From the IMG/VR virus record IMGVR_UViG_2778261571_000014, positions 1 to 8,785 of that record: a DNA stretch of 8,785 nt; one strand, 5' to 3'. This document shows positions 1-8,785 of this stretch, piece after piece. Position 1 is the first letter of the stretch. Each line of letters starts with the position of its first letter. Source of the stretch: a virus. Lineage: Duplodnaviria > Heunggongvirae > Uroviricota > Caudoviricetes. The translations under genes were made by a program, and so were the position numbers. The notes beneath the pieces were generated by a model that saw only the letters and a program-made list of their open reading frames with translations, was not told the origin of the DNA and ran no database searches.

Positions 1-1410
1 GGATCACTGGCAGAGGCCGCAAATCAGAAAGGCGATTTCGCACAAAATGCAGCAAAAAATGCCGGAGTTAACCTTGCCGCTCAGGGGGTTCTTTCCGCAG
101 CAGCAAAGGGAATAGGGCGTGGAATAACGGCTATAAAAGGTGATATTGCGCCAGAAGTGGCGAAGAAAATTGCCACATCAGAATCGATGGGCGTGACACC
201 AATGACATCTGATGTTATCCCGCCGAAAAATGCTTTCACTCGCGGCCTAACTCAGGATGCCGAGGGGGCTTTGCTCGGGACAGGCTCAAAGCGAGCGGAG
301 CAATATGCAACGCGTAGTAAGCTGGTAAGTAATTATTTTGACCGTTTTGGTGAGTACAACCCTGATGATGTGGTGAAATCTCTTACCACCACGTTAAGGG
401 GGCGGAAGGATGCCGCTGGCGCTGTTATCAATGACGTCACCAATAAAATGGGTAATGCCGCAGTTGATACCACAAATACCATGAATGCTCTGAATACAGC
501 GATCGCAAGACAGGAACGGCTTGGGACGTCTGCCAATCAAAGCCTGCTTACATCCTTGCGTAACCTACGTGAAGAATTAGCAAACCCTGCAACTGATTTG
601 GATGTTACGTTTGATCTCTTGCGTCAGCACAGAACAGCATTTAGATCTAATGTTCAGGGAGATGCTATGGTCTTCCCCAACCAGGCAAAAGCAGCTACCA
701 ATATGGTAGAGAATGCAATGTCAAAAGACCTTCGTAACGCAGTTGCTAAAAACCTCGGTGCATCAGACGCAGCAAAATACCTTAAAGCAAATTCCGATTA
801 TGCAAACGTTTATAATAAGGTGCTTAATAAAAACATTGCCAACAAGCTCAACAAGGCAAGCAGTGAAGCCAGTCCTGAACTTATAAATACCGTTGTATTA
901 AGCAGAAAACCATCTGACGTGAAACGAATCTGGAGCGCACTGGATGATAAGGGGAAAGATGCTATGCGTGCAGCTTACGTCAGCAAAATAGCGGAAAAGG
1001 CCGGGGACTCTCCAGCCAAGTTCATCACTGAAGTTAATAAGCTGAAATCTCAGTCAGGCGGTGAAATTTACAACACTATTTTTTCTGGAAAGCACATGAA
1101 AGAGCTTGATGCTCTTCATGAAGTTCTACAGCAAACAGCAAGGTCAGACACCGCAAATGTAGTAACTCAGACGGGGCAATCGCAAGCCAACAGGATAAGG
1201 ACGATTGGCGCAACTACGACTCTTGGCGTATCAATGGGGCTTGAGGCTGGTTTCGGTGCAATGATGCGCTTGTATGAGTCTAAAGCAGCAAGAAACATGC
1301 TTCTCCGCCTTGCAAACGTCAAGCCTGGAACTCCGGCATATGAGCGAGCGTTAAATCAGGCTGCTAACGCCGTTCGCCCTCTCCTAACTAACGAAGCTAC
1401 CAGGCAGTAG
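1..1410 (+). CDS. Phage DNA-ejection (injection) protein, P22 gp16-like by position; 5'-truncated by the window edge
   Basis: Frame 1 is open from base 1 with no stop before the track ATG at 157, so the 417-aa ORF is the 3' part of a longer gene; stop TAG 1408-1410. The translation is Ala/Lys/Asn/Thr-rich with no TM segment. Product is assigned from synteny (directly upstream of the sie/immI block and tailspike), not from a recognised motif. Confidence 0.65.
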
Positions 1411-1429
1411 AAATGAACGCCAAGGAAGG

Positions 1430-1759
1430 CTATTTAATTCTCTTTTCAATGGCTGCAATTATTGCTTTTCCTGATGTTTCAGGAGATTTTGTAGCCATAT
1501 AAGACGAAAAAATCATGTCGGTCATTCTTTCATAACTTACTATTTCCCACTTAGCCAATGCATGGGACAGTTTGTAGTTGTCATCAGTTAGTGCCCTTAT
1601 GGAATTTTTTAAGTGTTTATTCTCTTCTGTTAATCGCGCAATTTTTGTATCAATTTCATGTGAGCGATCTAATTCCTTAACCTGTTTCTTGAGGGCAGCT
1701 AACCCTGCATATAGTACGCAACAGGATATCCCAAGAGCGAGTACGACTATTTCTAACAC
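1430..1759 (-). CDS. Small membrane protein (N-terminal TM helix plus coiled-coil-like region); candidate superinfection-exclusion or accessory protein
   Basis: Track ORF 1430..1975(-). Preferred start is the in-frame GTG at 1759-1757, preceded by AAGGAGG (1770-1764) with 4-nt spacing. The product begins VLEIVVLALGISCCVLYAGLAAL (hydrophobic, about 22 aa) followed by a charged heptad-like segment (KKQVKELDRSHEIDTKIARLTEENKHLKNSIRAL). The upstream extension 1760-1975 is W/H/C/F-rich and overlaps the better-looking + gene 1790..2155. Sits where sieA lies in P22. Confidence 0.5.
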   Translation of the reverse strand: MLEIVVLALGISCCVLYAGLAALKKQVKELDRSHEIDTKIARLTEENKHLKNSIRALTDDNYKLSHALAKWEIVSYERMTDMIFSSYMATKSPETSGKAIIAAIEKRIK

Positions 1760-1789
1760 ACCAACCTCCTTAGTTTTTCGCAGGATACC

Positions 1790-2155
1790 ATGAAAAAAGT
1801 TAACATTGGAAACGTACCAAAAATGCTCGTTCCGCTCTTTGAGAGCGGTACAATTGTGTTTTGTAGAGACTTTCCAGAATGGCAACGCCTGCATCAAAAA
1901 CTTGGCGTTGACGTGCATGACTCGGACGCCAACGGAGCGTCTCATACAATGAGTAGCGAGAATGGTGTTTTGCATGTGATAGGCGTGTTCAATGGCAAAC
2001 TATCTACTATTGCCCATGAGTGCGCTCACATGGCATTCGATATCTGCTCAAGGGTAGGTGTTGATGTTGAACCAGGAAGAGCCAACGAGACTTACTGCTA
2101 CTTAATGAGCAGGCTTGTTGAGTTCTGCGAGCGACATATCAAAAAGCCGGAGTGA
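1790..2155 (+). CDS. Hypothetical 121-aa protein with an HExxH motif (possible small zincin / ImmA-IrrE(M78)-like metallopeptidase)
   Basis: ATG 1790 preceded by AGGA (1781-1784) with 5-nt spacing; stop TGA 2153-2155. The translation contains STIAHECAHMAF (HECAH encoded at 2015-2029), which resembles the xTxAHExxH signature of M78/ImmA-type peptidases. The function is inferred from the motif only. Confidence 0.55.
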   Translation: MKKVNIGNVPKMLVPLFESGTIVFCRDFPEWQRLHQKLGVDVHDSDANGASHTMSSENGVLHVIGVFNGKLSTIAHECAHMAFDICSRVGVDVEPGRANETYCYLMSRLVEFCERHIKKPE

Positions 2156-2163
2156 CCCGGCTT
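2144..2163. terminator. Hairpin between convergent genes (AAGCCGG-agtgac-CCGGCTT); probable intrinsic terminator, better on the minus strand
   Basis: 7-bp stem 2144-2150 / 2157-2163 with a 6-nt loop that contains the TGA stop of 1790..2155. On the minus strand the stem is followed directly by TTTGATAT, giving a 5-T run with the stem Ts. On the + strand it is followed by GATTATTACTTTTT. Confidence 0.35.
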
Positions 2164-2168
2164 GATTA

Positions 2169-2348
2169 TTACTTTTTGCTGTCTGGAGTTCGCTTATCTA
2201 ATACCCAGCCATGACCTGGCTTTGTTGTTGGTGGAAGCCTTTCGTTGTCCTTGACGGTGGCAAAATTGTCTTTCTTACCGCCGCGCGGGCCAACTTCTTG
2301 GTATATTCCGCCGTTTTTTCCTGTGTTTTCACCTGGTTTTTTCGCCAT
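2169..2348 (-). CDS. Small 59-aa Gly/Lys-rich hypothetical protein
   Basis: Track ORF 2169..2363(-). Preferred start is the second ATG (2348-2346), preceded by GAGG with 6-nt spacing, giving MAKKPGENTGKNGGIYQEVGPRGGKKDNFATVKDNERLPPTTKPGHGWVLDKRTPDSKK. Low complexity, so coding status is uncertain. I have an unverified recollection that a 59-codon ORF occupies this position in P22. Confidence 0.4.
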   Translation of the reverse strand: MAKKPGENTGKNGGIYQEVGPRGGKKDNFATVKDNERLPPTTKPGHGWVLDKRTPDSKK

Positions 2349-2437
2349 GATATACCTCAACATGCACTCGTTATTGGGCGATTAAATATTGATCTCATTT
2401 TATGAGTAGTCAATATGGTCCAAAAAAGGCAAAAATT

Positions 2438-2465
2438 AACCCACCTTCAGGTGGGTTTTTTGTTT
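2438..2465. terminator. Bidirectional rho-independent terminator (AACCCACC-ttca-GGTGGGTT followed by TTTTGTTT)
   Basis: 8-bp stem 2438-2445 / 2450-2457, loop 2446-2449, T-run to 2465 on the + strand. On the minus strand the same stem is followed by AATTTTTGCCTTTTTT. The TGA stop of the minus-strand RHH gene (2449-2447) lies in the loop. Confidence 0.6.
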
Positions 2466-2767
2466 AGCAGTTCTCTCAACTTTTCGTTCTGCTCTCTGAA
2501 CTTTTCCTGTATTTCTTTTTGCATGGCGATAACCTGGGCTTGAAGTTGAACTAGCGCATCAACATTTAGCGGAACCGAGACGCTGTTGATTTTATCTGCT
2601 ATTTCCCCGAGTGTATTTTCTGCATTCAAGGCATCTTCCAGTATCTGAACAATCTCTGAGTTCATTGATCTGCCGTTACGTTTGGCTCGTTCAGCTATAG
2701 CATCCCGCATTCCTGCAGGAAGCCTGATATTGAACCTATCCATTTCATGACTAGGGAACTTGCTCAT
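2447..2767 (-). CDS. Ribbon-helix-helix (Arc/Mnt-family) repressor, 106 aa, with a C-terminal coiled-coil-like extension
   Basis: ATG 2767-2765 preceded by GAGG with 4-nt spacing; stop TGA 2449-2447. The N-terminus DRFNIRLPAGMRDAIAERAKRNGRSMNSEIVQILEDAL matches the Arc/Mnt beta-strand and helix signature (FN.R.P ... NGRS.NSE) recalled from P22 Arc and Mnt. It is divergent from the arc-like gene, which is the Mnt position in P22 immI. Confidence 0.75.
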   Translation of the reverse strand: MSKFPSHEMDRFNIRLPAGMRDAIAERAKRNGRSMNSEIVQILEDALNAENTLGEIADKINSVSVPLNVDALVQLQAQVIAMQKEIQEKFREQNEKLRELLNKKPT

Positions 2768-2803
2768 ATGACCTCAACGTAAAGATGTTCGCTAAACAAT
2801 AGC

Positions 2804-2866
2804 ACCAACTTGACATCAAAATAAATGGTGTTAAATTGGTTCTAGAACCAAGTTGGTATCATTATA
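2804..2866. promoter_or_regulatory. Divergent control region of the immI-like locus: rightward Pant-like promoter plus palindromic operator candidates
   Basis: Seen directly: -35 TTGACA (2810-2815), 16-bp spacer, extended -10 TGtTAAATT (TG 2829-2830, hexamer 2832-2837). A perfect 16-bp palindrome TTGGTTCTAGAACCAA (2836-2851) overlaps the -10 and predicted start. A 9-bp inverted repeat ACCAACTTG (2804-2812) / CAAGTTGGT (2849-2857) flanks it. A perfect TATAAT on the minus strand (2866-2861) is a candidate leftward -10 but has no good -35. Confidence 0.5.
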
Positions 2867-2878
2867 GGAGGATTACTT

Positions 2879-3052
2879 ATGAAAGATGTGCTTTACACAG
2901 GTCGTAAAAGTCAAAGTTTTCAGCTTCGTTTGCCAGCGCGAATGAAGGAGGAGATTAGACGTGTTGCTGAAATGGATGGAATTTCTATCAACTCTGCGAT
3001 TGTGCAGCGACTGGCTAAAAGCCTGAGAGAGGAAAGAGCTAATGCCCAGTAA
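2879..3052 (+). CDS. arc: Arc-like ribbon-helix-helix repressor, 57 aa (absent from the supplied ORF track, presumably below its length cutoff)
   Basis: ATG 2879 preceded by AGGAGG (2866-2871) with 7-nt spacing; stop TAA 3050-3052. Translation MKDVLYTGRKSQSFQLRLPARMKEEIRRVAEMDGISINSAIVQRLAKSLREERANAQ aligns by eye with P22 Arc (…QFNLRWPREV…AEENGRSVNSEIYQRV…). It lies between the divergent RHH gene and the antirepressor gene, as arc does in P22. Confidence 0.75.
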   Translation: MKDVLYTGRKSQSFQLRLPARMKEEIRRVAEMDGISINSAIVQRLAKSLREERANAQ

Positions 3053-3125
3053 AAATAGTGAAGCCCAGCAGTGCGCGAACACAAACTGGGCCTCTATGTC
3101 AGTAACCGTATGCAAGGAAACTAAC

Positions 3126-3752
3126 ATGAATATTGTAGCAAAATCAGATTACAACTTCCACGGAGTTGAGTTGGTGCCCACCCGTGATATGCATGGTGTT
3201 TGGTTTACATCATCTAATATTGCATCTGCACTTAAATACGCAAATAGTCGTGCAGTAACAATGATTTATAACAAGTATAGCGATGAGTTTAGCGCCGGAA
3301 TGACTCAGGTACTCGAAGTGAGTACCTCAGGAAATTATCGCAAAAAAGTGCGAGTTTTCTCACTACGCGGTGCCCACCTAATCGCGATGTTTGCTCGCAC
3401 TCCGGTAGCCAAAGAGTTTCGCCGCTGGGTGCTGGATATTTTGGATCGGCAGGCAGAATGCTCACCGATTGCAAAACAGTTTACTGACGAAGAACTGGTT
3501 AATCTCTGCTACTTACAATTGTGGATGGAGAAGAGTCAACAAATGTGCAAACACATCTACCCAGGAATGAAGCAAATTGGTTCTGAGCTTTCAGGAAGAA
3601 TTTACGATATTGCATATGAGACTCGCTATATGTCAGAAGAAACCAAGAAATCACTTCTTCGTGAAATGAAGAATCTTGATACCAACAATTTTGTCGTAAA
3701 GAACGCTCAGCCAATGCTGACAAAACTGCGCGGCGAGGAATGGATTCATTGA
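3126..3752 (+). CDS. Phage antirepressor, Bro-N/AntA-type N-terminal domain
   Basis: Track ORF 3042..3752. Preferred start is ATG 3126, preceded by AAGGAAA with 5-nt spacing. The recognisable domain (NFHGVELVPTRDMHGVWFTSSNIASALKY … VRVFSLRGAHLIAMFARTPVAKEFRRWVLDIL) begins about 10 aa after it and matches the Bro-N/AntA pattern (F.F…WF…A..L… ending …A..F..WV). The alternative ATG 3042 overlaps the arc stop by 11 nt and cannot be excluded. Stop TGA 3750-3752. Confidence 0.7.
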   Translation: MNIVAKSDYNFHGVELVPTRDMHGVWFTSSNIASALKYANSRAVTMIYNKYSDEFSAGMTQVLEVSTSGNYRKKVRVFSLRGAHLIAMFARTPVAKEFRRWVLDILDRQAECSPIAKQFTDEELVNLCYLQLWMEKSQQMCKHIYPGMKQIGSELSGRIYDIAYETRYMSEETKKSLLREMKNLDTNNFVVKNAQPMLTKLRGEEWIH

Positions 3753-3781
3753 TTGGTGCGCCGGACGGCGCAAAAAGAAAA

Positions 3782-3802
3782 CCGCCAGTGTGCTGCTGGC
3801 GG
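3782..3802 (-). terminator. Terminator-like GC-rich hairpin on the minus strand (CCGCCAG-7 nt-CTGGCGG followed by TTTTCTTTTT)
   Basis: 7-bp stem 3782-3788 / 3796-3802. On the minus strand it is followed by a T-tract (complement of the A-run 3772-3780); on the + strand no T-tract follows. A second short hairpin GCGCC-ggac-GGCGC lies at 3758-3771. No minus-strand gene is evident upstream of it. Confidence 0.3.
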
Positions 3803-3840
3803 CCTATGTCACACCCTTACTACCACATAAGGAATGCCTA

Positions 3841-4566
3841 ATGACTTTGAAGAATGTAGCAAACATCGGATCCGTTGTCACGGATAAAACCATTGACAGC
3901 CAAAGTCTTCTGATGATGGTTAATGAAGCTCGCAAGTTATGTGGAGAGCCATCAGTACGTAACAACAAATTCATCGAGAAAATTGAGGATGAATTGGAGG
4001 GCGAGACCTACACAAAAAGTGTAGGTCGGAAAAACGGGGCTGACATTGATGTTATCTCCATGACTATCAAGCAGGCGCTTCGTGTTGCTGCTCGCGAATC
4101 TAAAGCAGTTCGCCGAACACTTGTAGACAAACTTGAAAGTATGCAGGAAGCACACATTAAAAGCGGTAAATCAGCGAGTGGACTTGTTGAGTATCGTCAA
4201 GCGCGAACATTGAAAATGACGGTTGAAGCTGTTACCAATCTGTTCGATCTGATGCCAAATCTTGCGCCTGAGGCAAAGCAGACAGCGGCAGCAAGTATAA
4301 TCAACCCGCTCGTTGGTTTTAATGCAATACCTCTTCCGGCAATAGAAGAGCATTACTACTCAGCAGGGGAGGTTGCAGAGCAGCTTGGAGTAACGGCCAA
4401 CAAGATTGGTCGTATTGCTAACGCAAACAACCTCAAAACTGAGCAGTACGGGAAGTTCTTCCTAGATAAATCGGCGCATTCCAGCAAACAGGTAGAGGCG
4501 TTCCGTTACAATTCTGAAGGCGTTAAAGCACTACAACACCTGCTACATGGCTCAAATGTGGCGTAA
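3841..4566 (+). CDS. Second antirepressor-like / phage regulatory protein (Rha- or KilAC-like features), 241 aa
   Basis: Track ORF 3790..4566. Preferred start is ATG 3841, preceded by AAGGAA with 6-nt spacing; the 3790 start would place the GC hairpin in coding sequence and lacks an RBS. Stop TAA 4564-4566. The C-terminal segment SAGEVAEQLGVTANKIGRIANANNL looks like a helix-turn-helix. Family assignment is from memory of antirepressor C-terminal domains and is tentative. Confidence 0.55.
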   Translation: MTLKNVANIGSVVTDKTIDSQSLLMMVNEARKLCGEPSVRNNKFIEKIEDELEGETYTKSVGRKNGADIDVISMTIKQALRVAARESKAVRRTLVDKLESMQEAHIKSGKSASGLVEYRQARTLKMTVEAVTNLFDLMPNLAPEAKQTAAASIINPLVGFNAIPLPAIEEHYYSAGEVAEQLGVTANKIGRIANANNLKTEQYGKFFLDKSAHSSKQVEAFRYNSEGVKALQHLLHGSNVA

Positions 4567-4584
4567 CATTTTATAATGAAAACT

Positions 4585-4615
4585 AAACCCGCTTAATCGC
4601 GGGTTTTTTCTTTCC
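4585..4615. terminator. Bidirectional rho-independent terminator (AAACCCGC-ttaatc-GCGGGTTT followed by TTTCTTTCC)
   Basis: 8-bp stem 4585-4592 / 4599-4606 with a 6-nt loop, then a T-rich tract on the + strand and AGTTTTCATT on the minus strand. It lies 19 bp after the + gene stop (4566), and the minus-strand mnt-like stop (4595-4593) sits in the loop. Confidence 0.6.
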
Positions 4616-4850
4616 TTAGAATTTCAGCCGCAACTTCTTTTACTCGTTCCGAGATTAATGAGGCCAGCCTCTCTTCTTCATCACGATACCCGCTTACAGG
4701 TGATGGTTTGGAGAGTGATTCTTCCATCGTAGCCACAATTTCGGAATTGATAGACCTGTTATTCATTTTTGCACGCTGCTTAATCTTAGCGTGCAACTCG
4801 TGCGTAAGCCTCAAGTGGAACTGCGCCTCATCGTATTTGCTGTACATCAT
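4593..4850 (-). CDS. mnt: Mnt-type ribbon-helix-helix repressor homolog, 85 aa
   Basis: Track ORF 4593..4928(-). Preferred start is ATG 4850-4848, preceded by GAGG with 5-nt spacing. The product MMYSKYDEAQFHLRLTHELHAKIKQRAKMNNRSINSEIVATMEESLSKPSPVSGYRDEEERLASL… aligns along its length with P22 Mnt as recalled (…HFNFRMPMEVREKLKFRAEANGRSMNSELLQIVQDALSKPSPVTGYRNDAERLA…). The upstream extension (MHTEMVRLLICTVGFTMPFHPFGEAL) has no RBS. Confidence 0.8.
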   Translation of the reverse strand: MMYSKYDEAQFHLRLTHELHAKIKQRAKMNNRSINSEIVATMEESLSKPSPVSGYRDEEERLASLISERVKEVAAEILRKEKTRD

Positions 4851-4982
4851 CAATGCCTCACCAAATGGGTGGAATGGCATCGTAAAACCTACTGTACAAA
4901 TCAACAATCGTACCATTTCGGTATGCAATAAACACCAACCGTAGCCATGCTGCGGCGATTCCTTGTATCTGGAGCAAATTAA

Positions 4983-6896
4983 ATGACAGATTCAATAAAT
5001 GCCAATGTTGTAGTAAGCATGCCTTCTCAACTCTTCACTATGGCTCGTTCTTTTAAAGCCGTAGCCAATGGCAAAATTTATATCGGTAAAATTGACACGG
5101 ACCCGGTAAATCCTGAAAACCAGATTCAGGTTTATGTGGAGAACGAAGATGGTTCTCACGTTCCTGTTTCGCAACCAATCATCATTAACGCTGCTGGATA
5201 TCCGGTATATAACGGACAGATTGCTAAGTTCGTAACTGTGCAAGGCCATTCTATGGCTGTTTATGATGCGTATGGTGCACAGCAGTTCAATTTTCCAAAC
5301 GTGCTGAAGTATGATCCTGATCAGTTTCGTCAGGAACTGGCAGGTAATAGTGGTGCGTCACAGATTGGTTCCTCATCAGGAAATACTGTTCAACAAGAAA
5401 TAGATCGTCTAAATAAATTTGGTTATGCTTATGGTGTTAGATTAAGCGCGTATATGCATGAAAGCGACCCCTTAACAAGCGCCCTGACTGCATCACGGGA
5501 AAAAAGACTACCACTTGTCATTGATTGTGATGCGACATATAAAACTTTAGTGGTTTACAGTAATGACAGAATAATTGGCTGCGGTGATCATACATTAACA
5601 AAATCCGGTAATGATAAGCCATCCATTCCACCGGCACAACAACCAGAACGCCCTTCTGGTTCGATGACTAATTTTAGTGAAATTGATGCAGGTATCGTTA
5701 TTGTTCACCCTGACAATGGGTCGGCAACCAATATTATTATTTCAGGGTTTAACCTCGCGACTAACTCACATTGCGACTATGCGATACATTGCTCTTTCAT
5801 GTCTTTTACAAAAATAGAAGATATGAAGTTCAACGGGTACAAGCGTGGGATTAAATGGTACACCGCCTATGGAAATCAGCTATCCAGAATATTTTCACTT
5901 TACTACTATTCTGTCACTGATGTTTTTTCAGACTATATTTGCTACGATTTTTCTGACGGTAACTACCCATCAGGCACATCAAATACCCTAACAAACGTAA
6001 CATGCACCAACTATAAGAAATGCTATTACGTAGCAAATCTAAACTACTCTACATTTACCAATTGTGGTGGTGAAGGAGTAGAGTCACCAACACCAGTATC
6101 CACAGGAAACATCCCACAGACCTTCGAGTTTGTCAATTGCCCTAATATTGTCCTGAATACACCATATACTGAGAATTTAAGGGGTGGATTTATAAGGGCA
6201 GTTAGTGATGCATCCGGGGTGTATCAAGGTGCCGCAACTATGGTCATCAATGGGCCAGAGGCGGTCGTGGGTATCACAGGCACCACTACCAATGTTGGCG
6301 CTAAGCTTCTGGACATTCAGGGAGGAGTTAACTGTGTGATAAACGGTGGATACATGACAGGTGCTGCAAGTGGGTATTTCCTTGAGTTTGGTGGGGCATC
6401 GGATGACGCAACCCTTACGATAATAGGGATGGAAATGCGCAACGTATTAGAACAAATACGAAACCATCCTGGATATAACGGAATTAACTCTATAAAAGGG
6501 TTAAGGCCTATGCAGTTACTTCGTAAAGGGATTGGAGATGCGACCGGGACCGGGATAGTAAACTGGAAAACAGCTGCCGAAGACCAGTATTTTATGGGCG
6601 GGGGAAATTTCACTAAAACAATACTTGGTGGATTTTATAAGATAGAAATTACGTTACCCATAGGATCTTCCGCATCAGGCGGAGAAGTTCAACTCTTGCT
6701 GTCAGATACGGATACAGACAATGGAGTTATAATTTCACAATGCTATGTTCCTCCAGTGTCAAGCGGTAAGTTTACTGCCTCCATAAGCTACGAGGGTAGA
6801 TTGCCAGGTGGAAAGTTTCTTTATGTAAAAACTAATAATGCCAATTGGTCATCTGGATACGATCCAGACTCAATATTTAATGTTGTTCTGAAATAA
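4983..6896 (+). CDS. Tailspike protein (P22 gp9-like N-terminal head-binding domain; divergent C-terminal receptor-binding domain), 637 aa
   Basis: ATG 4983 preceded by GGAG with 8-nt spacing; stop TAA 6894-6896. The first ~113 aa ([12 protein letters not shown]…[21 protein letters not shown]…ENEDGSHV…[12 protein letters not shown]…VLKYDPDQ) closely match the P22 tailspike N-terminus as recalled. The rest is Gly/Thr/Asn/Ser-rich, consistent with a beta-rich receptor-binding domain, and is not recognisably P22-like. Confidence 0.9.
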
Positions 6897-7284
6897 CAAT
6901 ATTTATAATGATGCACGCAAAGCTTTGTACTGGATTGCAAGGCTTTGCGCTATACGATAGTGGCTAAGGTGGGTCACTCTACCTTCTCATCAATCCAGTC
7001 CGCCCACCATTGCATCATTTCTCTGCGCTTAACGTAGCGGATGCCTCACTATCACACGGTGATGGTTCATTACTGGTTTGCAGAATGGATAGAGAACTGA
7101 GGATAAAAGATATCCCAAAACCCCAAAATCTCATCTTTAGGATTTGCAGAAAGGTAGGCGTGAACAGATACCTACGCATGAAGACGGGACTAGCTCAGAT
7201 GTGATATTTGTGGTGATCACATACATCATCAACGATGCTCGTTATGGTGAGTTTGATGACTACCCGCTGAAGTGAAAATTGTGT

Positions 7285-7308
7285 TGTGTACCAAATTGCG
7301 TACCAAAC
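7285..7308. repeat. Tandem 12-bp direct repeat (TGTGTACCAAAT / TGCGTACCAAAC) in the prophage-host junction region
   Basis: Two adjacent 12-mers identical at 10 of 12 positions; the core GTACCAAA occurs at 7288-7295 and 7300-7307. Function unknown; could be a protein-binding site or an att-proximal arm-type site. Confidence 0.3.
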
Positions 7309-7618
7309 TAAAATCACAAATCATGAAACCCTTGTTCATGGCGGTTCTCAGGGGTGTTTCGCGTAATCGTGAAACAAAAAGGTAGATTGTTGCTTACCGT
7401 CATTCATCATTAGGTTAAATCCGTTATTTCTGCTGTCTGCCAGAGTATCAAATATCACCGTGCTAATCAGCTTTAGCGCCACAATTTGGCAGCGAGTGGC
7501 AACAGATCATGTCAGATAAAAATGAGAGGGTAGTCACATTTTCTTGCACTTTATTCCAGCCAGTTCATAAGTATTTCCGTAAAAAGAACAGCTATTTGAA
7601 ACTCCTGAGGGTTTGCTG

Positions 7619-8785
7619 TTGAAACGCCGTCTTATTATTGCTGCTTCTTTGTTCGTTTTTAACTTATCGTCTGGTTTTGCGGCGGAAAACATTCCTTTTT
7701 CACCTCAGCCTCCAGAGATTCATGCCGGGTCCTGGGTATTGATGGATTACACCACCAGTCAGATCCTCACCGCGGTTAATGAGCATCAACAGCGCAATCC
7801 CGCCAGCCTGACAAAGCTGATGACGGGTTATGTCGTGGATCGCGCTATCGATAGTCATCGCATTACGCCAGACGATATTGTCACCGTGGGGCGCGATGCG
7901 TGGGCGAAAGATAATCCGGTGTTTGTCGGTTCTTCACTGATGTTTTTGAAAGAGGGCGATCGCGTATCGGTACGTGATTTAAGCCGTGGTTTAATTGTGG
8001 ATTCCGGAAATGACGCTTGTGTTGCTCTGGCTGACTATATTGCCGGTGGGCAACGGCAGTTTGTTGAAATGATGAACAACTATGCCGAGAAGCTGCATCT
8101 CAAGGATACGCATTTTGAAACAGTGCATGGTCTGGATGCACCTGGCCAGCATAGCTCGGCTTATGATTTAGCTGTGCTTTCTCGCGCTATCATCCACGGC
8201 GAGCCCGAGTTTTATCATATGTACAGTGAGAAAAGTCTCACCTGGAACGGTATCACCCAGCAAAACCGTAACGGGTTGTTGTGGGATAAAACCATGAATG
8301 TTGACGGCCTGAAAACGGGTCATACTTCTGGTGCCGGGTTTAATCTCATTGCTTCGGCTGTAGATGGGCAGCGTCGTCTCATTGCAGTGGTAATGGGGGC
8401 TGACAGTGCAAAAGGTCGTGAGGAAGAGGCAAGAAAATTACTGCGTTGGGGGCAACAAAACTTTACTACGGTGCAAATTTTGCACCGTGGGAAAAAGGTC
8501 GGAACGGAACGCATCTGGTATGGCGATAAAGAAAATATCGACCTGGGAACGGAACAAGAGTTCTGGATGGTGCTACCGAAAGCCGAAATTCCACATATCA
8601 AAGCCAAATATACCCTTGATGGTAAAGAGCTCACCGCGCCAATTAGCGCCCATCAGCGGGTAGGGGAAATTGAACTTTACGACCGTGATAAACAGGTGGC
8701 GCACTGGCCGCTGGTTACCCTGGAATCTGTCGGGGAAGGCGGCATGTTTTCCCGCCTGAGTGATTATTTCCACCATAAGGCCTGA
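7619..8785 (+). CDS. dacD: D-alanyl-D-alanine carboxypeptidase DacD (penicillin-binding protein 6b), host gene
   Basis: The translation carries the three class-A PBP active-site motifs: SxxK (NPASLTKLMT), SGN (VDSGNDA) and KTG (GLKTGHT), behind a signal-peptide-like N-terminus (RRLIIAASLFVFNLSSGFA). It matches E. coli DacD as I recall it. Preferred start is TTG 7619, with GAGG (7607-7610) 8 nt upstream, giving the 388-aa MKRRLII… protein; the track's TTG 7613 has only 2-nt spacing. Stop TGA 8783-8785. Confidence 0.9.
   Translation: MKRRLIIAASLFVFNLSSGFAAENIPFSPQPPEIHAGSWVLMDYTTSQILTAVNEHQQRNPASLTKLMTGYVVDRAIDSHRITPDDIVTVGRDAWAKDNPVFVGSSLMFLKEGDRVSVRDLSRGLIVDSGNDACVALADYIAGGQRQFVEMMNNYAEKLHLKDTHFETVHGLDAPGQHSSAYDLAVLSRAIIHGEPEFYHMYSEKSLTWNGITQQNRNGLLWDKTMNVDGLKTGHTSGAGFNLIASAVDGQRRLIAVVMGADSAKGREEEARKLLRWGQQNFTTVQILHRGKKVGTERIWYGDKENIDLGTEQEFWMVLPKAEIPHIKAKYTLDGKELTAPISAHQRVGEIELYDRDKQVAHWPLVTLESVGEGGMFSRLSDYFHHKA

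Follow-up and report, generated by a model that had tools for sequence, protein, structure and literature searches.

Three short hairpins in the variable "ant moron" region of a P22-like prophage are very probably Rho-independent terminators that delimit the small transcription units lying between gene 16 and the tailspike gene. We analyzed a window of 8,785 nucleotides (nt), the whole stretch taken from IMG/VR virus record IMGVR_UViG_2778261571_000014, whose open reading frames (ORFs) and family matches assign it to the right-hand end of a P22-like prophage (Lederbergvirus) of E. coli. Judged by sequence, the segment at 1410-4983 corresponds to the variable region known in P22-like phages as the "ant moron" or immI (PMC2629481; PMC8022706). 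We refer to the three hairpins as T1, T2 and T3, with positions given in window coordinates:

2144-2163, T1: hairpin terminator with a stem of 7-8 base pairs (bp), predicted to be canonical for minus-strand transcripts (tail UUUUUGAUAU) and weak for plus-strand transcripts (tail UUGAUUAUUAC)
2438-2465, T2: hairpin at 2438-2457 followed by a T-tract to 2465, predicted to be canonical on the plus strand (tail UUUUUUGUUU) and weaker on the minus strand (tail UUAAUUUUUGCC)
4585-4615, T3: hairpin at 4585-4606 followed by a T-tract to 4615, predicted to be canonical on the plus strand (UUUUUUCUUUCC) and weaker on the minus strand (tail UUUAGUUUUCAUU)

The hairpins themselves are ordinary. T1 and T2 are already annotated as terminators (both in AF335538, T1 also in AF527608) and their observation is not new, and T3 is a routine new member of the same set.

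Terminator hairpins of the ant moron

Each hairpin is a short G+C-rich palindrome with a run of A on one side and a run of T on the other, an arrangement that could fold on either strand. The stems comprise 7-8 pairs including 5 G-C pairs and are closed by loops of 4-6 nt, as expected of intrinsic terminators, and directly 3′ of each stem lies a U-tract that is clean on one strand: the plus strand at T2 (UUUUUUGUUU) and T3 (UUUUUUCUUU) and the minus strand at T1 (UUUUUGAUAU). The T2 stem of 8 bp (2438-2445/2450-2457, AACCCACC/GGTGGGTT) encloses a TTCA loop and is followed by T6GT3, and the T3 stem, likewise of 8 bp (4585-4592/4599-4606), encloses a TTAATC loop and is followed by T-rich sequence to 4615. 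All three lie 0-22 nt from the stop codon of a supported gene, the location expected of the 3′ end of a transcription unit.

Counting as a locus any stem of 7 or more pairs, 5 or more of them G-C, that is followed by a T-rich tail, we found four strong terminator-like loci in the window compared to 0.21 ± 0.45 expected from 500 dinucleotide shuffles, none of which (0/500) reached four, and three two-stranded loci compared to none in any of the 500 shuffles. RNA folding, proposed as a check by a first-pass annotation of this DNA, agreed with the presence of the hairpins and gave z-scores of -2.1 to -4.1 for T1-T3, with GC-core stem energies of -8.4 to -9.6 kcal/mol. Together the shuffle statistics and the U-tracts rule out chance palindromes or operator sites as the nature of T1-T3. 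Rfam searches of the whole window (E up to 1) and of 2980-3920 (E up to 10) returned only sub-threshold matches, of T2 to the sroH terminator stem and of T3 to RyhB, and we rejected both identities as generic terminator resemblance.

Comparison with annotated phages places each hairpin at a known terminator position. T1 is base-for-base the same as 't mnt' of the P22-pbi record (AF527608 14212-14234) and the 'bidirectional terminator; tORF59A' of HK620 (AF335538), and T2 is the homologue, in the same place, of HK620 'tMNT' and of the hairpin that contains the P22 mnt stop, a TGA that likewise falls in the hairpin loop (GTCA). The hkcC and orf59a DNA flanking these terminators is ~97% identical between the window and P22/HK620; across 1756-2463 identity to P22 is 96.9%, and the match stops at T2. 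T2 itself differs in form, as an 8-bp variant in the window (loop TTCA, GGTGGG) and a 5-bp core with a mismatch in P22 and HK620, and the Mnt allele to its right has 106 amino acids in the window versus 83, with only the last codons KK(P/T)T* in common. T3 occupies the position of P22 t_ant (AF527608 16012-16035; 'tANT' in HK620) and shares its presumed role, rightward, between the antirepressor operon and the tailspike gene. In contrast to t_ant, T3 extends over the 3′ end of an additional Arc/Mnt-family gene on the minus strand; it belongs to this second Mnt-like gene cassette and travels with the gene; we considered T3 as a homologue of t_ant and rejected this, as the two sequences are unrelated.

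Termination predicted in one direction

The first-pass annotation described T2 and T3 as carrying U-tracts on both strands. The tails are T-rich on both strands of all three hairpins (5-7 of the first 8 nt), yet U-tract scores are strongly unequal: 4.99 on the plus strand versus 2.88 on the minus strand for T2, 5.14 versus 3.38 for T3, and, in the opposite sense, 4.04 on the minus strand versus 2.58 on the plus strand for T1. An uninterrupted U6 is present at T2 and T3 only in the U-rich plus-strand tails (UUUUUUGUUU, UUUUUUCUUU), with interrupted tails on the minus strand (UUAAUUUUU, UUUAGUUUU). We therefore kept the two-stranded T-richness of that description and not the equality it implied. 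Predicted strength is one-sided, such that T2 and T3 would be canonical terminators for rightward transcripts and T1 for leftward transcripts, with T1 predicted to end a leftward mnt-orf59a unit on the minus strand. T1 had also been called the weaker hairpin, and this does not hold, as it is weak only on the plus strand because it lacks a U-tract there.

A second asymmetry lies in the genes that overlap the hairpins. All three hairpins hold in their loop the stop codon of the overlapping gene: hkcC at T1 (TGA 2153-2155, plus strand), Mnt-like gene 1 at T2 (TGA 2447-2449, minus strand) and Mnt-like gene 2 at T3 (TAA 4593-4595, minus strand). The in-loop minus-strand stops of T2 and T3 had been described from the first reading and are confirmed. 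T1 had been placed between two convergent stops, and those of hkcC and orf59a (2169-2171, minus strand) are indeed 13 bp apart, but the hairpin does not lie between them since it contains the first. Each overlapping gene ends in Lys codons (IKKPE* in hkcC, NKKPT* in Mnt-like gene 1 and RKEKTRD* in Mnt-like gene 2, at 2141-2155, 2447-2464 and 4593-4616), and at all three hairpins the A-run of these codons forms a good U-tract on the opposite strand. The gene with the in-loop stop always faces the poorer U-tract.

T2 further departs from a convergent arrangement. It had been assigned to a convergent gene pair, but both neighbors, Mnt-like gene 1 (2447-2767) and the orf59a-like gene (2169-2348), are encoded on the minus strand. 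The only plus-strand ORF that ends near T2 (2211-2405) has no family match in Pfam or PHROG and among homologues shows 19 non-synonymous versus 2 synonymous changes; orf59a, compared across 26 distinct homologues, shows 13 synonymous versus 3 non-synonymous changes with 13 of 17 changes at third positions. We examined plus-strand ORFs 2211-2405 and 2415-2543 as convergent partners and rejected both for their absence of family matches and non-coding substitution pattern. By this pattern nothing codes on the plus strand at 2211-2405, which corrects the implied gene call, and T2 lends no support to the proposal that the hairpins corroborate gene calls on both strands. The sharing of one hairpin by convergent genes is retained for two of the three convergent pairs in the region, hkcC/orf59a at T1 and antirepressor 2/Mnt-like gene 2 at T3, where the antirepressor 2 stop (4564-4566, plus strand) makes the pair truly convergent; equal service to both partners is doubtful. 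The third pair, gene 16 and the hkcB-like gene (1408-1432), has stops 19 bp apart and no strong hairpin, the sole hairpin nearby being a weak one with 3 G-C pairs at 1467-1486 within the minus-strand gene, so not all convergent pairs here share a terminator.

These observations bear on whether each hairpin is instead a symmetric bidirectional terminator, of similar efficiency for the two flanking genes, and so marks true convergent ends, a reading that we consider improbable. It draws on the A-tract and T-tract that flank each stem, a consensus scan that lists all three hairpins on both strands, the bidirectional label of T1 in the HK620 record, and the frequency of bidirectional terminators between convergent E. 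coli genes, as Ju et al. 2019 is summarized in bioRxiv 10.1101/2022.10.23.513370. Opposed to it are the clearly unequal U-tracts, the lack of any plus-strand gene ending at T2, and the in-loop stops that expose one direction to interference by ribosomes. The P22-pbi record in addition puts 't mnt' after orf59a and not at T2, which implies that leftward transcripts read through T2 and terminate at T1. In reporters built on lambda tR2, a stop codon a few bases from the terminator allows the ribosome to suppress hairpin folding, reducing efficiency from ~90% to <10%, with >27 nt needed for full efficiency (PMC4824070); ribosome suppression near stop codons would further weaken the own-gene direction at T1-T3. 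Bacterial bidirectional intrinsic terminators resemble T1 and T3 in their palindromic stem, A and T runs and location between convergent units, and unequal efficiency in their two directions is documented (PMC4824070, introduction). They differ from the present set in that T2 lies between co-directional genes and the in-loop stops leave one direction exposed to ribosomes.

Conservation across exchanged flanks

We compared T2 across 73 sequences consisting of IMG/VR contigs, GenBank records and the window, and found that 67 retain five or more contiguous core pairs and that TCA is present in the loop of all 73. The left flank is constant in this set and the right flank falls into 7 classes made up of different Mnt alleles, deletions and other genes. 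Several different Mnt alleles share the terminal residues KK(P/T)T*, which correspond to the opposite-strand reading of the T2 T-tract and 3′ arm. In one lineage the stem is CCAGCC/GGCTGG versus CCCACC/GGTGGG, a difference of two compensated pairs. Variation in T1 among 72 related sequences is limited to loop positions beside the TGA, a 1-nt deletion in two sequences and a stem mismatch in one.

T3 is identical in phage JEP4 and occurs as a loop variant in VSe13. Its stem is invariant, and it always adjoins a minus-strand Arc-family gene, with a constant right flank and three unrelated left flanks. In the slot after the antirepressor operon two unrelated terminators alternate, T3 and the P22-type t_ant, which argues for function, as the position appears to need a terminator and not a particular sequence. 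Relatives of Mnt-like gene 2 in Sf101 and IME10 have different 3′ ends and no comparable hairpin, and T3 is therefore specific to one branch. E. coli 980-2 (4510-4545) carries the same antirepressor 2 followed by a P22-type t_ant, and is without the second mnt-like gene.

T2 and T3 sit exactly at mosaic joints, in keeping with the first-pass description of compact, module-like terminators in a phage accessory region. Homology breaks that fall on the hairpin edges at T2 and T3 could also mean that the hairpins are chiefly scars of, or hot spots for, the exchange of modules, with an incidental terminator-like form, and to this we give almost no weight. Survival of whole transcription units through exchange would be expected to leave joints at terminators, the hairpin, U-tract and in-loop stop are kept across different flanking alleles, and an unrelated terminator occupies the same slot elsewhere; an origin in exchange would moreover be compatible with termination and not an alternative to it.

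We consider it very improbable that the hairpins act without release of RNA polymerase, either as pause sites for termination by head-on collision or as 3′ stem-loops that shield processed messenger RNAs from exonucleases. The stems are short, T1 and T3 do separate convergent units, and the E. coli ynaJ-uspE element terminates poorly in one-directional transcription and acts through head-on collisions (bioRxiv 10.1101/2022.10.23.513370). However, textbook U-tracts directly follow a G-C closed stem at T2 and T3 on the plus strand and T1 on the minus strand, collision-type elements are described as unlike intrinsic terminators (bioRxiv 10.1101/2022.10.23.513370), and T2 is retained in HK620, where mnt has been deleted and no convergent partner is left.

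Several points nonetheless weigh against one-sided intrinsic termination. The GC-core stems are short, with 5-6 G-C pairs and the energies of -8.4 to -9.6 kcal/mol given above. The terminator discriminant (d-score) that we used is a 1990 formula run with modern energies, making its values approximate and the signs near zero, on the minus strand at T1, T3 and T2, unreliable. Annotators of HK620 label T1 bidirectional, versus the plus-strand weakness predicted here, and conservation of T1 and of the left part of T2 may be no more than a consequence of how similar that block of DNA is as a whole. Covariation is weak overall: at T2, 87.5% of cells are paired with 2 compensated pairs, a result equaled by 59 of 500 shuffles, and we do not claim covariation support as the shuffle control matched and both changes come from one lineage, while the T1 and T3 stems hardly vary and are uninformative either way. 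The literature searched contained no transcript 3′-end data for these sites in P22-like phages.

A proposed role in blocking antisense transcription

We propose that the main job of T1-T3 is probably to halt transcription that would otherwise run antisense into the overlapping gene, because the AAA run of that gene's Lys codons is a perfect U-tract for the opposite strand. On the plus strand, T2 would keep hkcC transcripts or unmodified late transcripts out of mnt and the Pant promoter, and T3 would end the arc-ant1-ant2 unit transcribed from Pant, keeping it out of Mnt-like gene 2 and the tailspike gene. On the minus strand, T1 would stop mnt-orf59a transcripts ahead of hkcC. In the overlapping gene's own direction termination should be less efficient, since the U-tract there is interrupted and the ribosome can reach the hairpin. 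A more speculative possibility is that the stop codon in the loop is a selected design, in which translation would gate the terminator for the overlapping gene while antisense transcription arriving from the other side would meet a constitutive one.

Late transcription is known to cross the ant moron to reach the tailspike gene, and late-operon terminators are thought to stop transcripts that lack modification by gp23/gp24 (PMC2629481; PMC8022706; PMC12111858). In our model, transcription from the late promoter with the gp23 antiterminator would ignore all three hairpins en route to the tailspike gene.

Gene order around the hairpins

We assigned the ORFs of the window to families using Pfam and PHROG profile matches and the Prokaryotic Genome Annotation Pipeline (PGAP) annotation of a closely related E. 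coli prophage, whose gene calls agree with the window's gene order:

Ending at 1410, plus strand: gp16-type DNA-transfer protein gene (ORF list, PHROG)
1430-1759, minus strand: hkcB-like gene
1790-2155, plus strand: hkcC-like gene, 121 amino acids (PHROG 1365, E 1.7e-39; hkcC in HK620; coding sequence in the related E. coli prophage)
2169-2348, minus strand: orf59a/YjzC-like gene, 59 amino acids (PHROG 3202, E 7e-31; weak Pfam YjzC match; annotated in P22 and by PGAP)
2447-2767, minus strand: Mnt-like ribbon-helix-helix repressor gene 1, 106 amino acids (Pfam Arc, E 1.6e-20; PHROG 1287; PGAP label in the related prophage 'Arc family DNA-binding protein')
2800-2863: putative Pant-like promoter, TTGACA at 2810-2815 and TAAATT with TG at 2832-2837 (promoter scan, 10/12 matches)
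2879-3052, plus strand: Arc-like repressor gene, 57 amino acids (Pfam Arc, E 8e-12; PGAP annotation of a homologue)
3126-3752, plus strand: antirepressor 1 gene (Bro-N and P22_AR_C; Pfam, PHROG)
3841-4566, plus strand: antirepressor 2 gene, 241 amino acids, a relative of P1 Ant and the final gene in the rightward arc-ant operon (PHROG 1726, E 4e-101)
4593-4853, minus strand: Mnt-like ribbon-helix-helix gene 2, ~85 amino acids (Pfam Arc, E 3e-15; PHROG 795)
4983-6896, plus strand: tailspike gene with P22 head-binding N-terminus
7613-8785, plus strand: host dacD

The region has the location of immI, between the end of gene 16 (1410) and the start of the tailspike gene (4983), and contains the divergent mnt and arc-ant units, with Pfam Arc on three genes, P22_AR_C on antirepressor 1 and the Pant-like promoter. 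The homologue of Mnt-like gene 2 in JEP4 is labeled 'regulatory protein mnt', and both PGAP and the VSe13 annotation use 'Arc family DNA-binding protein'. Inverted repeats at 2804-2812/2849-2857 (ACCAACTTG/CAAGTTGGT) and a palindrome at 2824-2863 (GGTTCTAGAACC) embed the Pant-like promoter, whose position corresponds to the Pant, Pmnt and operators of P22-pbi. This segment would function as a promoter with operators, and its repeats are likely Arc/Mnt operators of a specificity other than that of P22.

The C-terminal domain of antirepressor 1 is 29% identical to that of P22 Ant. Its longest ORF begins at 3042 and overlaps arc; we favor ATG 3126 as the start, which in DNA alignment matches the P22 ant start and agrees with the PGAP call in the relative. 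Antirepressor 2 has no similarity to P22 Ant, and its DNA resembles P1 ant1/ant2. A 26-nt stretch within the antirepressor 2 gene (4003-4028) forms an 8-bp inverted repeat (GACCTACA...TGTAGGTC), and P22 retains the same stretch (24/26) as a lone remnant in the spacer that separates t_ant from gene 9 (~5256-5281), where the flanking codons still read ELEGETY. P22 thus seems to carry the ghost of an antirepressor 2 gene.

Beyond the tailspike gene, ~465 bp of prophage DNA (6897-7362) contains no convincing ORF, and part of it matches DNA adjoining a HumD-family gene in another strain. The junction between prophage and host lies near 7362 in the sbcB-dacD intergenic region, and most E. coli genomes match the window only beyond that point.

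Candidate antisense RNAs of the sar type

Two further minus-strand terminators, at 3805..3779 and ~3094..3060, lie within the interval covered by the first-pass annotation and were absent from it. The one at ~3094..3060 falls in a positional and structural counterpart of the P22 antisense RNA sar (RF00262), in the arc-ant1 spacer, and the one at 3805..3779 in a second, analogous candidate preceding antirepressor 2:

3050-3126, minus strand: putative diverged homologue of P22 sar, with a 5′ hairpin, a terminator hairpin at ~3094..3060 and an extended -10 (TGCTACAAT) just inside ant1
3768-3847, minus strand: candidate second sar-like antisense RNA of ~80 nt, which would overlie the antirepressor 2 ribosome-binding site and ATG

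As in P22 sar, both RNAs would be ~75-80 nt, start from an extended -10 located a short way into the ant gene, span its ribosome-binding site and end at an intrinsic terminator. Unlike P22 sar, neither is detected by the Rfam model, and the second belongs to a P1-Ant-like gene unrelated to P22 ant.

The minus strand of 3050-3126 folds into two hairpins at -32.3 kcal/mol (z -5.6), the same architecture as P22 sar. The arc-ant1 spacer can be aligned to that of P22 across the ant start and the extended -10, which reads TGCTACAAT in the window versus TGCTATACT in P22, and when the window is compared with most relatives one pair of the terminator stem shows an A-T to G-C compensatory change. The Rfam sar model, which scores P22 sar at 96 bits, does not match the 3050-3126 copy. 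If antirepressor 1 starts at 3126, this sar-like RNA would cover its ribosome-binding site.

For the second element, the terminator hairpin at 3805..3779 (tail UUUUCUUUUU) is the best hit of the whole scan with 10 pairs, and its d-score, by the approximate discriminant, is positive on the minus strand only. A candidate promoter is provided by an antisense extended -10 (TGCTACATT) at 3861..3853, 13-21 nt inside the antirepressor 2 gene, with a -35 of GTGACA at 3881..3876. Thirteen diverse relatives from Escherichia, Klebsiella and Erwinia phages retain the hairpin and its U-tract; among them are Klebsiella phage KP12, Erwinia phage Midgardsormr38 and IMG/VR contigs in which protein identity is only 70%. 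Compensatory change occurs in 4 of the 10 pairs, and one of the stems is different throughout (GCCAATAG/CTATTGGC). Despite unrelated left flanks, the A-run behind the minus-strand U-tract is retained, and the antisense TGnTAnnnT motif persists though the encoded residues differ. Searches of 2980-3920 (E up to 10) yielded no Rfam family match to this RNA, and we found no description of it in the literature searched. We judge the chances evenly balanced that the 3805..3779 hairpin ends an undescribed sar-like cis-antisense RNA, running from ~3847 to ~3768, of the P1-Ant-like antirepressor gene.

Implications

T1-T3 confirm transcription-unit boundaries that are standard for this much-studied phage region, and in this respect matter little in themselves. 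Their combination of terminal Lys codons, an in-loop stop and an opposite-strand U-tract offers a compact natural template for one-way insulators, and is a reminder that a hairpin common to two strands need not serve both. If the second antisense RNA is real, the region would carry two antirepressors, each with its own antisense RNA, in addition to two Mnt-like repressors, and sar-type control would extend to a second, P1-Ant-like family of antirepressors.

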